From the IMG/VR virus record IMGVR_UViG_3300037067_021960, positions 7,061 through 71,060 of that record: 64,000 nucleotides of DNA. One strand, given 5' to 3'. Position numbers and translations under genes: made by a program. This stretch comes from a virus. Its lineage: Duplodnaviria; Caudoviricetes. Positions 10,322-41,334 of this stretch are shown piece after piece (within the stretch, counting starts at the first letter, position 1; each line of letters begins with the position of its first letter). The notes under the pieces are model-generated. The model made no database searches and had not been told where the DNA came from. It worked only from the letters and a program-made list of their open reading frames with translations.

Positions 10322-10653
10322 CCCTCCCCGCGTGCGAGCGCGATGCGCTCCTCAACGTTCTTGCGGGCCCGCTGCAGCGCCCGTAGGCCGTTCCACCGCT
10401 CCATATCCTCTGCGATACGGATCGCGTCGTCGAGGGCGTCGCTCTCGCGGTACAGGGCCGTGACCTCAGCCCGAGTGTGCCCCGGCGCGAGAACGTGAAG
10501 AGAGGCGGCCCCGGAGAGCCGCCCCCCTTCCCCCTCAACGGCGACCCGTGGTCGCCCATGCTCGAGGCTCCGTAGCAGACTCTCTCCACTGATGGGTTTG
10601 CTGGTAGGCTCGTCCGTGAATCGGACAGACTCGTGCGACTGCGCTGCGACCAT
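10318..10653 (-). CDS. Hypothetical protein, first gene of the leftward early operon
   Basis: GGAGG RBS; lies just downstream of promoter site B. Confidence 0.55.
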   Translation of the reverse strand: MVAAQSHESVRFTDEPTSKPISGESLLRSLEHGRPRVAVEGEGGRLSGAASLHVLAPGHTRAEVTALYRESDALDDAIRIAEDMERWNGLRALQRARKNVEERIALARGEG

Positions 10654-10683
10654 CTCTGCCTCCCGCCGTTGAGTGTTCGAACC

Positions 10684-10712
10684 ACCATAACCTCACACGG
10701 GGTTATTGTCAA
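10684..10712 (-). promoter_or_regulatory. Sigma70-type promoter with palindromic operator (site B)
   Basis: TTGACA-17-TATGGT; ATAACCTC-ACAC-GGGGTTAT at 10687-10706. Confidence 0.85.
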
Positions 10713-10725
10713 GAGGCGAAGTGTG

Positions 10726-10749
10726 GCAACAAAAGAACCCTTTTGTTGC
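10726..10749. repeat. 10-bp perfect inverted repeat (terminator or protein-binding site)
   Basis: GCAACAAAAG-AACC-CTTTTGTTGC between the divergent early and par units. Confidence 0.6.
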
Positions 10750-10997
10750 GAGAACGGCACAAGACTAGAACTGGACTGCATCCGTGCAGCGATCGAGCCA
10801 AACGGCCCGCGAATCGCCTCGGATGTCTCGACGGGGCTCCACTGTGGCCCCGATCGCTCACTTTTGGGGCCCGTTCTGGACAAGCGTCCCATCGCAGCGT
10901 GACAGGCGTCCACTGAGGCCTCGGCGACCATCGGGCGGCCGATGACGGCCAGGCGTCTTACCCTCTTTCCACGTTCGCGGGTTACCATGAACCCGTC

Positions 10998-11747
10998 ATG
11001 CCGACGATCGCGATCGCGAACCAGAAGGGTGGGGTGGGGAAGACAACAACGACAGTCACCCTGGCCGCTGCACTCACGCGGAAGCGGAAGCGAGTGCTGT
11101 GCGTCGACCTCGACCCGCAAGCCGGCTTGACGCTTTCCTGCGTTGCCCCCGAGCGGACGCCGACCGAGACGATCTACTCGGTCCTCATCCACCCGGAGAA
11201 GCTTGCCGGCGCGATCGCTCCCTCCGAGGAGGGGTTCGACGTCGTGGTAGGCTCTCAGCACCTCGCCGCGGCCGAGCTCGAGCTGGCGAGCCGCCAAGAC
11301 CGTGCGAGCCGCCTGGCGACCCTCCTGCGCGGCGACAGCCACGACTACGTCCTCATCGACTGCCCGCCGTCGCTCGGGCTCCTGTCGATCAACGCCCTCG
11401 TCGCGGCGCGCTACGTGCTCGTCCCGGTGGCCACCGAGTACCTCGCTCTCCAGGGCCTGGCGCTCCTCGTCGACACGATCGAGCGGACGAAGGCCCTCAA
11501 CCCGGCGCTCGAGCTCCTTGGGATCCTCCCAACGATGATGGACCGCCGGACGCTCCACTCCCGCGAGGTTCTCGACGTCCTCCAGAAGCGGTTCCCGGGT
11601 GAGGTCTTCCAGCCTGTCTACCGCACGGTGCGGTTCAACGAGGCGCCCTTGCTCCGTCGGTCGATCATCTCGTACGCCCCGCGATCGCAAGGGGCGAAGT
11701 CGTACACCCATCTTGCGAAGGAGGTCATCCGCCATGCCAGGGGCTAA
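10998..11747 (+). CDS. parA: ParA/Soj-family partition ATPase
   Basis: NQKGGVGKTTT, VDLDPQ, IDCPPSLGLL, GILPTM. Confidence 0.95.
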   Translation: MPTIAIANQKGGVGKTTTTVTLAAALTRKRKRVLCVDLDPQAGLTLSCVAPERTPTETIYSVLIHPEKLAGAIAPSEEGFDVVVGSQHLAAAELELASRQDRASRLATLLRGDSHDYVLIDCPPSLGLLSINALVAARYVLVPVATEYLALQGLALLVDTIERTKALNPALELLGILPTMMDRRTLHSREVLDVLQKRFPGEVFQPVYRTVRFNEAPLLRRSIISYAPRSQGAKSYTHLAKEVIRHARG

Positions 11748-39121: not shown

Positions 39122-39368
39122 GGTTCTGAGCCCCTTTCTCGTTTTGGATGCGATCAGCGATGGTCCGCACGCCGCGGATCATGTCGATCTCGTCTACCGT
39201 CGCCGGGCGACTGCGCCGCCGCGCACGCCGTTCGGCCCACTCCGTTGCTGACTGCTTCACAACCTCGTCCGGATAGCCGAGGTCCACGCGCAGAAACTCG
39301 AGCACGCGAGCCGCCGCCTGCAGGCTCGACGTCATCCGTTCTCGCTCTTGCTTCTTGCCCCCGAACAT
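39078..39368 (-). CDS. Hypothetical protein
   Basis: Coupled to the rep stop. Confidence 0.55.
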   Translation of the reverse strand: MFGGKKQERERMTSSLQAAARVLEFLRVDLGYPDEVVKQSATEWAERRARRRSRPATVDEIDMIRGVRTIADRIQNEKGAQNHVARSAGRGSDPER

Positions 39369-40573
39369 CACACCCTCACCTTCTCCGCCACATGGCACCC
39401 CGCCTTTTCCAGCTTCGCCGCGATGTCCCGTGCCCGCTCCTCGAGCTCGCCGCGCCGTGCCTCCATCTCCGCGATGCTGTCCCCGGCATCCCCCTCCCCG
39501 GCATCGTCGAGGAGCTTACCCATCTTCTGACGCAACCCTGCGGGGATCTCCTCCGCCTGCGCTCGCTCCTGCGCTGCTCGGCGCTCGAGCGCGATGTCGG
39601 CCTCGATCCCGCGAATACGGCTCATGATTCGCCGGTACTGGTCTCGCAGGTCGTCGATCCACTCCGGCGAGTCCGAACCCGCCGATCCCGAGTACTCCGA
39701 ACGTAGCTCCTGCAACTTCCCGGCGCGGTAGTCGGGAAGCCACCGCCGCACCGTGTTGATCGTCCACGTCCACCCCAGCGCCGCGAGCTGCCGCATGCAG
39801 CCCTCAATCTGCTCGACCGTGTTGCCATCGAGGAGCGCCTGGCGAACCCCCTGCTGGATCGGGAGCCACTCCTTCCCCTGCGGGCGGACCCCGCGCAGCT
39901 CCGCGTACGCCTCGGTGAGGTGGTCAAGCTGTTCCTTGTCGACCTTCACCCTCGGCGCCGGCTTCTCGGCCGGCGAGGAAGGTTTCTCTCTCACTCCTTT
40001 CTCACTTCTAATCTCTACTGGCGCCCGGGCGACGGAGGTCCGGCGCTCGGGTGACGGACCCTCCGGCGCTCGGGTGACGGAGGGGGTCCGGCGCTCGGGT
40101 GACGGAGGGGGTGTTGGCAGTGGATCCTTGGAAGATTCCGTAGGCCACACCGGGTACAGTCGACGTTCGACGACCGCCCCCTTGTCGCCATTGGTGACGA
40201 TCGCGCCGTTCTCGTCGATGCGGTCAATCGAGCTGCGCAAGAGCCCCTTGTCCACGAGCACCCTGATGTGCTCACGTACGGTCCGGGCTTCCATGAGCAG
40301 GTTCTCGCCGAGCCACTTGTTCGTTGCCCAGCAGTAACCGTGTTTGCCCGAGAGGCCGCAGATTTTTCCCCAGACCAGCTTCTGAGCGTGGGTTAGGTCT
40401 GACCGTGCGATGATGAACGCCGGAATGAACGCCCCACCGAGCTCCTTGGCCCGCTCGACGGTGAAGTTGTCTTCGGTGGGCTCGGCGTCGCCATCTCGTC
40501 GTGCAGCCGTCACGGTTTCACCACCCGGTTCGTTCCCCCCACTTGACATCCCCCTCTCGCCGGCTACAATCAA
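39368..40573 (-). CDS. Phage replication initiator (N-terminal wHTH, O-like)
   Basis: IPAFIIARSDLT...GYCWATNKWLGENL...TVREHIRVLVDKGLL; internal DNA repeats. Confidence 0.82.
   Translation of the reverse strand: MIVAGERGMSSGGNEPGGETVTAARRDGDAEPTEDNFTVERAKELGGAFIPAFIIARSDLTHAQKLVWGKICGLSGKHGYCWATNKWLGENLLMEARTVREHIRVLVDKGLLRSSIDRIDENGAIVTNGDKGAVVERRLYPVWPTESSKDPLPTPPPSPERRTPSVTRAPEGPSPERRTSVARAPVEIRSEKGVREKPSSPAEKPAPRVKVDKEQLDHLTEAYAELRGVRPQGKEWLPIQQGVRQALLDGNTVEQIEGCMRQLAALGWTWTINTVRRWLPDYRAGKLQELRSEYSGSAGSDSPEWIDDLRDQYRRIMSRIRGIEADIALERRAAQERAQAEEIPAGLRQKMGKLLDDAGEGDAGDSIAEMEARRGELEERARDIAAKLEKAGCHVAEKVRV
40017..40106. repeat. Iteron-like array (putative origin) inside rep
   Basis: TCCGGCGCTCGGGTGACGGA at 40039, 40062 and 40087, plus a degenerate copy at 40017; next to a comparatively AT-rich tract at 39981-40016. 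Confidence 0.8.
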
Positions 40574-40584
40574 AAGCGTTCCGG

Positions 40585-40699
40585 GTCGGCGCTCACCGAC
40601 TCGTCAACACCAACACACACGCGCCCCGCTCAAGGGCACTTCTCCCGCATCCTCGCTCAAGGATGCACTTTGCCTAGCGATCGGTTGCTCAGACCGACC
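40585..40699 (-). ncRNA. Structured leader or sRNA: four hairpins with UGAGC loops
   Basis: Stems differ in sequence but all pair; loops are CUGAGCA, UGAGCG, UGAGC, UGAGCG. Confidence 0.65.
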
Positions 40700-40705
40700 G
40701 GGTCC

Positions 40706-40735
40706 ACGATAGCATGGAACCCGCGCCGCGGTCAA
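40706..40735 (-). promoter_or_regulatory. Promoter upstream of the rep leader
   Basis: TTGACC-18-TATCGT with extended TG. Confidence 0.65.
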
Positions 40736-40757
40736 CGGCCTGGCCAGGCACAGCGCA

Positions 40758-40967
40758 TCAGCACGCACGTCGGAATTGCCTCCCCGGACCGCGGCCGGCG
40801 TTCGTCCAGCGATCGACAGCCTCCTCGCCGTGCGTACGCAGGAGTGACGCCTCGATCGCGTCACGGATGGCCTCTTCGCCGCGCACGTCCTCCGAGAGAA
40901 CGATCGCCTTGATGACCTCGACGTCGTCGAGCTCGCTGATGCAGATGGCCTCATACACAGGCGCCAT
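40758..40967 (-). CDS. Small hypothetical protein
   Basis: GGAGG RBS; MAPVYEAIC... Confidence 0.5.
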   Translation of the reverse strand: MAPVYEAICISELDDVEVIKAIVLSEDVRGEEAIRDAIEASLLRTHGEEAVDRWTNAGRGPGRQFRRAC

Positions 40968-41334
40968 GCGCCACCTCCTCGTGTGTTGGGTTAGCCTCTT
41001 CCCACCATCGGACGTTCGCCGGCCGCTCAAGGTGGTGGATCCAGACATGCGGGTCCGGCCGGTGCAGCGACGGATAGCGGGCGAGCAATCCCGCTTCCAT
41101 CAGCGACGGCGACACGAACCCGCACGCTGTATGGAACAGAGCACACGCTTCTCGTAGGGGATAACGGCGCGTGGCCGTGATGCGATAAGGAACGTTCACA
41201 GCCGCGACGACGAGCAGGTCGCCGACCACACCCTCGAGGCGAGGACGGGCCACGGCACGAATCGACCAATTCACAATGTCGACAGGCCGGTTTGGAAACG
41301 CAGACAGCGCTATGCGTACGACACGTTGCGACAC
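40951..41334 (-). CDS. Hypothetical protein
   Basis: AAGGGGG RBS with a GTG start. Confidence 0.5.
   Translation of the reverse strand: MSQRVVRIALSAFPNRPVDIVNWSIRAVARPRLEGVVGDLLVVAAVNVPYRITATRRYPLREACALFHTACGFVSPSLMEAGLLARYPSLHRPDPHVWIHHLERPANVRWWEEANPTHEEVAHGACV

Follow-up and report, generated by a model that had tools for sequence, protein, structure and literature searches.

Conserved facing promoters enclose a hairpin block upstream of a phage replication-initiator-like gene, most likely a sense/antisense control cassette

The DNA analysed here (the window; 64,000 nucleotides, 64% GC) is part of a 71-kb linear IMG/VR viral record that is estimated to be 76% complete. Its rep gene encodes a replication-initiator-like protein with profile matches to Pfam HTH_36 (5e-10) and PHROG 270 'replication initiation protein' (9e-12); the best PHROG matches also include 'replication initiation O-like'. 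Searches with Rep using tblastn returned only distant matches in phages, all to the N-terminal HTH of Firmicutes phage initiators, and no match in plasmids. An exonuclease-like and a nuclease-like gene are found in the neighbourhood of rep. Between rep and an upstream 69-aa ORF, which is also called as a gene in the related loci L004 and L006, lies a non-coding gap of ~215 nt on the minus strand. This gap contains the hairpin block studied here, for which a blastn search against GenBank phages gave no match (Table 1). The start codon of rep is uncertain and may be the annotated ATG at 40549 or a GTG at ~40511. The bases around it (40509-40556 in the window, 1330-1345 in L004) are conserved, but the reading frame differs between the two loci. 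In L004, five codons separate the same ATG from an in-frame TAG, and the called gene begins at a GTG six bases further on; the true start in the window may likewise be the GTG near 40511.

Inside rep, four iterons of repeat family D1 mark the probable origin. They are direct repeats that read TCCGGCGCTCGGGTGACGGAGGGGG on the plus strand and carry a GAGCG core. Iterons are present at the equivalent place in L004 and in the more distant locus L007, where they have a common start (CCCCCTCCG / CCTCCCCCG) and differ in the rest of their sequence. The window also encodes a ParA-type ATPase (10998-11747, plus strand), and no tyrosine or serine recombinase, integrase or resolvase was detected in the 71-kb record (76% complete). 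Since ParA is present and neither an integrase nor a resolvase was found, a plasmid-like maintenance that needs copy control is possible, and the phage may be maintained as a plasmid-like prophage.

Table 1 Features of the rep locus in the window. Hairpins are written as RNA of the minus strand, with the loop set off by hyphens.
Feature	Position	Strand	Description
Upstream 69-aa ORF	40966..40758	-	Stop codon at 40758; ends ~22 nt before the -35 box of the sense promoter
Sense promoter (P_sense)	40735..40706	-	-35 TTGACC (40735-40730), 18-nt spacer, TG-extended -10 TATCGT (40711-40706)
Hairpin H1	40678..40700	-	CGGUCGGU-CUGAGCA-ACCGAUCG; 5'-terminal hairpin of the predicted sense leader
Hairpin H2	40646..40667	-	GCAUCCU-UGAGCG-AGGAUGC
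Hairpin H3	40621..40639	-	GUGCCCU-UGAGC-GGGGCGC; two G.U pairs; followed by a GU-rich tract (40601-40620) on the sense strand
Hairpin H4	40585..40600	-	GUCGG-UGAGCG-CCGAC; first hairpin of the predicted antisense RNA
Predicted antisense RNA	40577..40675	+	~100 nt (H4', H3', H2'); both ends inferred, the start from the -10 box and the end from H2' and its T-rich tail
Antisense promoter (P_anti)	40543..40570	+	-35 TTGACA (40543-40548), 16-nt spacer, -10 TACAAT (40565-40570); sigma-70-like
rep, replication-initiator-like gene	39368..40549	-	N-terminal HTH_36; C-terminal domain matches no known family
Four iterons	40017..40111		~23-25 nt each; inside rep; repeat family D1

The four hairpins with UGAGC in their loops are present on the minus strand as the initial annotation had described them. 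Their clustering is beyond chance. We generated 200 first-order Markov shuffles of the window and recorded the largest count of TGAGC-loop hairpins per 130 nt, which was one in 181 shuffles and two in 19, compared to the four observed; of all 1024 pentamers, TGAGC is the only one to reach four loop hairpins. The hexamer TGAGCG as such is not enriched in the window (68 copies, 69 expected). A fifth UGAGCG hairpin that had been proposed at 10846-10871 has a loop of 14 nt and, because the word is not enriched, is most likely a coincidence. The four hairpins fall into two pairs of similar elements: H1 and H4 both contain GUCGGU..GAGC..CCGA, and H2 and H3 have in common an AAGUGC flank, a CCUUGAGCG core and the 12-nt direct repeat D9, with copies 27 nt apart. 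These likenesses suggest that part of the loop sameness may stem from duplication, and the stems are thus less freely variable than had been assumed.

A promoter scan placed this block between two facing promoters. The predicted start of the sense transcript (~40699) falls at H1, in agreement with the initial annotation, which had overlooked the conserved, near-consensus promoter on the opposite strand. This antisense promoter matches the consensus at 11 of 12 positions, with a predicted start at ~40577, whereas shuffled sequences yield an expected 0.3 promoter-like sites (at least 9 of 12 matches) per 3.5 kb. Its -35 box overlaps the annotated ATG of rep (40549-40547). The two predicted starts bracket the block at 40585-40700, so that the hairpins fill the ~120-nt overlap of two predicted converging transcripts, and the facing promoter accounts for the length of the structured region. 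It also accounts for the two best-conserved motifs of the leader: ATTGTAGC corresponds to its -10 box and ATGTCAAG to its -35 box, each read on the opposite strand. The positions of the P_anti hexamers are among the invariant columns of alignment A1.

No plus-strand gene that follows P_anti is conserved across the loci compared. The sequence opposite the promoter is taken up by an HNH gene in L007 and, in the window, L004 and L006, by the 69-aa ORF of the minus strand; a plus-strand ORF at 40714-41157 was discarded as a target of P_anti since it is the shadow of the conserved 69-aa ORF. We also considered GGGGGATGTCAAG, which we take to resemble the stoperator of Cluster A mycobacteriophages. 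TGTCAAG occurs only twice in the window, which is less than expected, and the likeness is that of a TTGACA -35 box read backwards, so this reading was rejected. The only other TGTCAAG of the window (10707-10713) is located in the divergent intergenic region 10640-10990 between a 111-aa minus-strand ORF and parA. The same region includes the GGCCCC/GGGGCC hairpin (10846-10871) and may control partition or immunity.

Rep is rare, with 14 proteins found among 5.8 billion searched. DNA of the relatives was obtained from IMG/VR, by look-up of the encoding contigs and from one metagenome scan. Together with the window, eight loci of six lineages were compared (the window, L004/L006, L007, L114, L120/L132 and L124), all of them metagenomic; identical records exist for L004 (L002, L115), L007 (L009, L116), L114 (L149) and L132 (L164). 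A script that used the criteria of the promoter scan found one convergent promoter pair upstream of the rep homologue in each of the seven relatives, and no such pair before any other rep homologue. P_anti has 11 of 12 matches at all loci (TTGACA or TTGACT with TACAAT, TATAAT, TATACT, TATCAT or TAGAAT), and P_sense of the relatives has 9-10 of 12 with a spacer that is always 18 nt long (TTGAC[CGT]-18-TA[TG][CGA]GT). The distance between the two -10 boxes ranges from 120 to 243 nt and the GC content of the loci from 54 to 66%. In L007, a 100-aa ORF sits between the leader and rep; elsewhere the promoter pair directly precedes the rep homologue. The leaders behind these promoter pairs are only ~64-67% identical to that of the window, L004 excepted (85.6%), and the retention of the pair despite this divergence indicates that it is under selection. 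When the window is compared with L004, identity is higher in the non-coding leader (85.6%) than in rep (78.8%) and the upstream ORF (69.4% at the nucleotide level). By these sequence comparisons, the leader is under purifying selection, which supports the initial view of the hairpins as a real, selected and non-coding element in the leader of an initiator-like gene. No facing promoter was found before the more distant rep homologues L110/L118 and L112/L113, where the leaders differ.

Several further features were noted among these loci. A second copy of GGGAGAAGTCAAG, the -35 region of P_anti, lies right before rep in L007 (2950-2985) and has no matching -10 box. L120 (2136-2164), L124 (2041-2069) and L132 (1599-1627), and only these, carry a third promoter-like site (TTGTCG-17-TATACT), which stands back-to-back with P_sense and is directed away from rep. 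In L006 (496-2279) and L005 (1-1784), the rep region is doubled: a 235-aa ORF with HTH_36 and HNH domains overlaps by 4 nt the following 359-aa rep, which has its own HTH_36, and the leader is located upstream of the first, 235-aa ORF. This looks like the insertion of an HNH homing endonuclease into the N-terminus of rep, or a fusion with it. The 68-kb contig L164 (CAZORQ010000009.1), assigned to a MAG with the label 'uncultured Thermotogae', has the same leader sequence as L132. It probably represents the phage genome of L132 that was binned together with a bacterial MAG, which makes the host label doubtful. L038, L060 and L095 share a short upstream similarity in a different context and were not retained as relatives of the leader.

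RNAalifold, applied to a MAFFT alignment of the eight leaders, gave no consensus structure; loop lengths differ and the hairpins are out of register. Hairpins were therefore compared one by one with a script, and compensatory changes are reported for individual hairpins. The positions of H2, H3 and H4 keep hairpins in the relatives, and their stems differ by many two-sided changes. The H2 stem is GCAUCCU/AGGAUGC in the window, AGCUCCU/GGGAGCU in L007, CUCCCU/AGGGAG in L120 and L132 and UCUCCCU/AGGGAGA in L124, while the hairpin at this position in L114 is weak. H3 occurs with the stems GUGCCCU/GGGGCGC, GCCCU/AGGGC, GGUCUC/GAGACC and GCCCUC/GAGGGC, and H4 with GUCGG/CCGAC, CUCGG/CCGAG and GCAGAUGC/GCGUCUGC, besides a 10-bp form in L120. 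H1 of L004 (GCCGGU/ACUGGC) has the same loop as that of the window and one compensatory pair change. Loop conservation in relatives, which had been set beforehand as the criterion for the proposed fixed loop, extends only to L004/L006 and partly to L007, where the UGAG motif shifts between loop and stem; by this criterion, the fixed loop does not hold as a trait of the family. In L114, L120, L124 and L132 the loops are different (GGCAG, GGCGA, AAAA, UUGGCGA, UUGGCUG and UUGGUGG), also at the H4 position, where a hairpin is present in all four. The sameness of the UGAGC loops is hence lineage-specific, and part of it may derive from duplication.

H4 is the best-conserved hairpin. Its 16-mer is identical in the window, L004, L006 and L007, lineages that are ~35% diverged elsewhere. 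An exact search for it in IMG/VR gave 102 matches, nearly all of them chance occurrences within coding regions of high-GC phages; only two, both known relatives, are real. Wobble pairs lie consistently on the sense strand and the minimum free energy of the sense strand is more negative than that of the antisense strand in 8/8 loci, which suggests that selection may act mainly on the structure of the sense leader itself. An exception is H4' of the window, which folds slightly better on the antisense strand. The leaders of L120, L124 and L132 are longer and contain a series of helices that exclude each other, and covariation is seen in two of these: GCAACUG/CAGUUGC alternates with GCAACCG/CGGUUGC (a compensatory change from U-A to C-G), and changes also occur in AGCAACUG/CGGUUGCU. 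These patterns suggest a folding switch. The overlapping alternatives that are kept in all three (L120 2320-2400, L124 2215-2280, L132 1775-1850) are H2, GGGAGAA/UUCUCUC, UCUCUCGG/CUGAGAG and GCAACUG/CAGUUGC.

On the plus strand, the predicted antisense RNA would run through the complements of H4, H3 and H2 and end after H2', which is followed in the window by ACTTTGCC with just 4 T in 8. The standard terminator scan reported no plus-strand terminator at the hairpin block of the window. Across the loci, a T-rich tail follows a terminator-like hairpin in 8/8 cases (H2' in seven, H3' in L114) and is strong in L120 (TCTTTGTGTTTT) and L132 (TCTTTGTCTTCA); read backwards, this tail is the conserved CAAAG that immediately precedes H2 on the sense strand. 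The predicted RNA stops short of P_sense and of the upstream ORF, and the ribosome-binding site of rep lies under the -35 region of P_anti and thus outside it. No conserved leader peptide or leader ORF and no consistent attenuator was found in the leaders compared. Terminator-like sites on the sense strand are weak and inconsistent; they comprise H3, which the terminator scan had marked, with its GU tract, and GAGCG..CGCUU followed by UUGAUUGU.

Taken together, we read the hairpin block as the overlap of a face-to-face promoter pair that would serve sense/antisense RNA control of rep, with a probability of roughly 60%. P_sense would give rise to a rep mRNA with a structured untranslated leader of ~150 nt (H1 to H4). 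P_anti, the stronger promoter, would be transcribed back through H4, H3 and H2 and yield a ~100-nt antisense RNA that is non-coding and has three stem-loops, in which H2' would act as a weak intrinsic terminator. This RNA could contact the nascent leader by loop-loop ('kissing') pairing, probably with H4 and H4' as the primary recognition pair, and duplex formation together with collisions of converging polymerases would lower the amount of functional rep mRNA. Two routes are plausible: the duplex may be cleaved or decay, in the manner of oop and cII, or the converging polymerases may interfere with each other, which has been proposed for pR and pO of lambda (PMC3985674). As the dose of antisense RNA would track the genome copy number, the result would be a negative feedback on the supply of Rep, which in turn would limit the firing of the iteron origin inside rep. 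In the L120, L124 and L132 leaders, a folding switch would suit triggering by antisense binding. The loops are compatible with such pairing: the complement of UGAGC is GCUCA, each antisense loop in the lineage of the window reads (C)GCUCA and thus contains CUCA, a YUNR motif, and by our own reading of the hairpin comparison H4 has a YUNR motif on one strand or the other in 5/6 lineages. According to the account of Franch et al. 1999 given in PMC4485353, YUNR U-turn loops are a general enhancer of loop-loop antisense recognition. Binding sites for a protein or RNA had been proposed initially; the RNA part of this idea fits, and the partner is most likely the antisense transcript.

Control of this kind is well described for rep genes, so the element cannot be called undescribed, as it had been at first. 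The pO/oop region of lambda consists of a convergent promoter and an antisense RNA beside O (PMC3985674). In the lambda record, analysed with the same tools, the -10 box of the leftward promoter overlaps the ATG of O, the oop terminator lies ~55 nt further and iterons are located inside O. The rep locus is similar in that a backward sigma-70 promoter extends over the start of the O-like initiator gene, here with its -35 box, in that the iteron origin is inside the initiator gene, and in that this promoter faces early transcription and gives a short hairpin-ended RNA, which is made in lambda and predicted here. In contrast, oop overlaps the 3' end of the upstream cII and targets cII, whereas the RNA predicted here stops before the upstream ORF and overlaps an untranslated leader, which has a dedicated sense promoter at a distance of ~130 nt. 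The oop terminator is also clear-cut, unlike the weak H2' tail of the window, there is no sequence or Rfam similarity, and Rep shares merely its general HTH-initiator character with O.

Plasmid countertranscripts are small antisense RNAs that arise from a constitutive promoter and have stem-loops with recognition loops and YUNR-type motifs, and their dose follows the copy number (PMC4485353). As in pT181 (RNA I/II), pIP501 (RNA III), R1 (CopA), ColE2 (RNA I) and pMV158 (RNA II), a promoter inside the rep leader would produce a leader-complementary RNA, a likeness of geometry. The element differs from them in its location in a tailed-phage genome instead of a plasmid, and because it has no clear attenuator, leader peptide or overlap with the ribosome-binding site, the attenuation, translation-coupling and RBS-blocking subtypes are not assignable. 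No Rfam family, including ctRNA, RNA I, CopA and other antisense families, reached the gathering score in the window, and three matches at E up to 10 in 40300-41000 were spurious. In ColE1, RNA I is a ~100-nt RNA with three stem-loops that is complementary to the 5' end of RNA II and pairs with it by kissing loops; RNA II is the replication primer and no Rep protein is involved. The predicted antisense RNA has the same size and number of stem-loops and the origin likewise lies several hundred nucleotides downstream, whereas the sense RNA of the rep locus is an mRNA for an initiator protein and its origin is defined by iterons. Unlike oop, which acts on cII, the predicted antisense RNA would target a dedicated leader, untranslated and served by its own promoter, and the element therefore appears closer to the plasmid countertranscripts or to ColE1 RNA I/II than to oop.

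The hairpins might instead be repeated protein-binding sites in the sense leader. A phage regulator, Rep or a host RNA-binding protein would then read the UGAGC loop and act on the rep operon at the level of antitermination, translation or stability, and P_anti would be secondary. Four hairpins with one loop core, far above chance, a strictly identical H4 16-mer in four loci despite ~35% divergence around it, and wobble pairs that favour the sense-strand fold are all in line with this idea. We nevertheless regard it as unlikely, as the loop is lost in L114, L120, L124 and L132 while the hairpins and both promoters stay, UGAG slides between loop and stem in L007, and the pairwise likeness of H1 with H4 and of H2 with H3 accounts for part of the sameness. 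Moreover, Pfam and PHROG annotation identified no candidate RNA-binding protein nearby. The nut sites of lambda (boxA/boxB) and put of HK022 are comparable as promoter-proximal hairpins at the head of an early operon; however, the loops UGAGC(G) and CUGAGCA are not GNRA-like pentaloops as in boxB, the sense strand lacks a linear boxA, Rfam gives no match, and the nut/put systems have no conserved facing promoter. A sponge of the CsrB/RsmZ type is contradicted by the lack of GGA in any of the four loops (0/4). Of the roles suggested initially, a function in replication or copy number is thus plausible, while nothing points to antitermination or a sponge. One observation leaves room for a protein beside the antisense RNA: a cis-encoded antisense pair does not need the identity of the H4 16-mer, so an additional sequence-specific partner is possible. 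The UGAGC loops, and especially this 16-mer, would then make the rep leader, or its antisense counterpart, a multivalent docking array for an RNA-binding protein of the phage or the host. Such a protein, by analogy with Rom, which acts on the kissing complexes of ColE1, would set the rate of sense/antisense pairing or itself gate replication; we consider this quite unlikely and offer it as a speculation.

It is also conceivable, though improbable in our view, that the hairpins have no effect beyond the rep mRNA that carries them, where they would, in cis, stabilise the 5' end, be sites of processing or form a folding switch, and that P_anti works mainly by transcriptional interference through polymerase collision or a roadblock of bound polymerase, with little role for the antisense RNA molecule. 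The position of H1 at the predicted 5' end, the preference for the sense fold and the covarying, mutually exclusive helices of L120, L124 and L132 would fit such a model, and for lambda a tuning of replication by interference and not by the oop RNA has been proposed (PMC3985674). However, the terminator-like antisense hairpin in 8/8 loci would halt most antisense polymerases before P_sense, and its recurrence fits a discrete small RNA better than pure interference; in addition, the folding energy of the whole leader is ordinary compared to shuffled sequences (z -0.8 to -1.3). We find it very improbable that the inverted repeats act as DNA, that is as operators of a dimeric repressor, cruciforms or single-stranded priming or initiation hairpins, or that the sense RNA is a ColE1-like primer. 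Shortly after the P_anti start, H4 does form a clean palindrome (GTCGG-N6-CCGAC), and the distance of ~590-680 nt from the sense start to the iteron origin further downstream resembles that in ColE1 RNA II. On the other hand, the arms vary and the centres are alike, which is the reverse of dimer operators; spaced by 32, 27 and 37 nt, the hairpins are out of helical phase; G.U pairs, meaningless in duplex DNA, lie consistently on one strand; and Rep together with the iterons makes an RNA-primed origin unnecessary. The palindrome occurs a single time in the window, for which reason we also rejected H4 as a repeated operator. Finally, the initial annotation had connected the loops with the rep iterons through their GAGCG core. 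This core is present in the four iterons of the window, but the iterons of L007 lack it and are unrelated although H4 is identical there. The common GAGCGCCG is restricted to the lineage of the window, and H4 was therefore dismissed as an iteron-related Rep operator.

Overall, the promoter pair and its hairpins form a real, conserved regulatory cassette, which most likely places a phage replication initiator under sense/antisense control. Antisense control of initiators is known for plasmids and lambda and rarely documented in uncultivated phages. The present comparison describes such a compact cassette of two facing promoters and three or four hairpins across six metagenomic phage lineages with 54-66% GC. 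This suggests that phages other than the lambdoid ones also have the layout of lambda pO/oop or a copy-control loop of the plasmid type. With ParA present and no integrase found, the cassette could be the copy-control device of a plasmid-like prophage. If the docking of a protein on the UGAGC loops were true, it would constitute a three-component RNA-RNA-protein replication switch in an uncultivated phage lineage. In practical terms, the cassette is a ready test case for how convergent promoters and kissing hairpins tune the supply of Rep.
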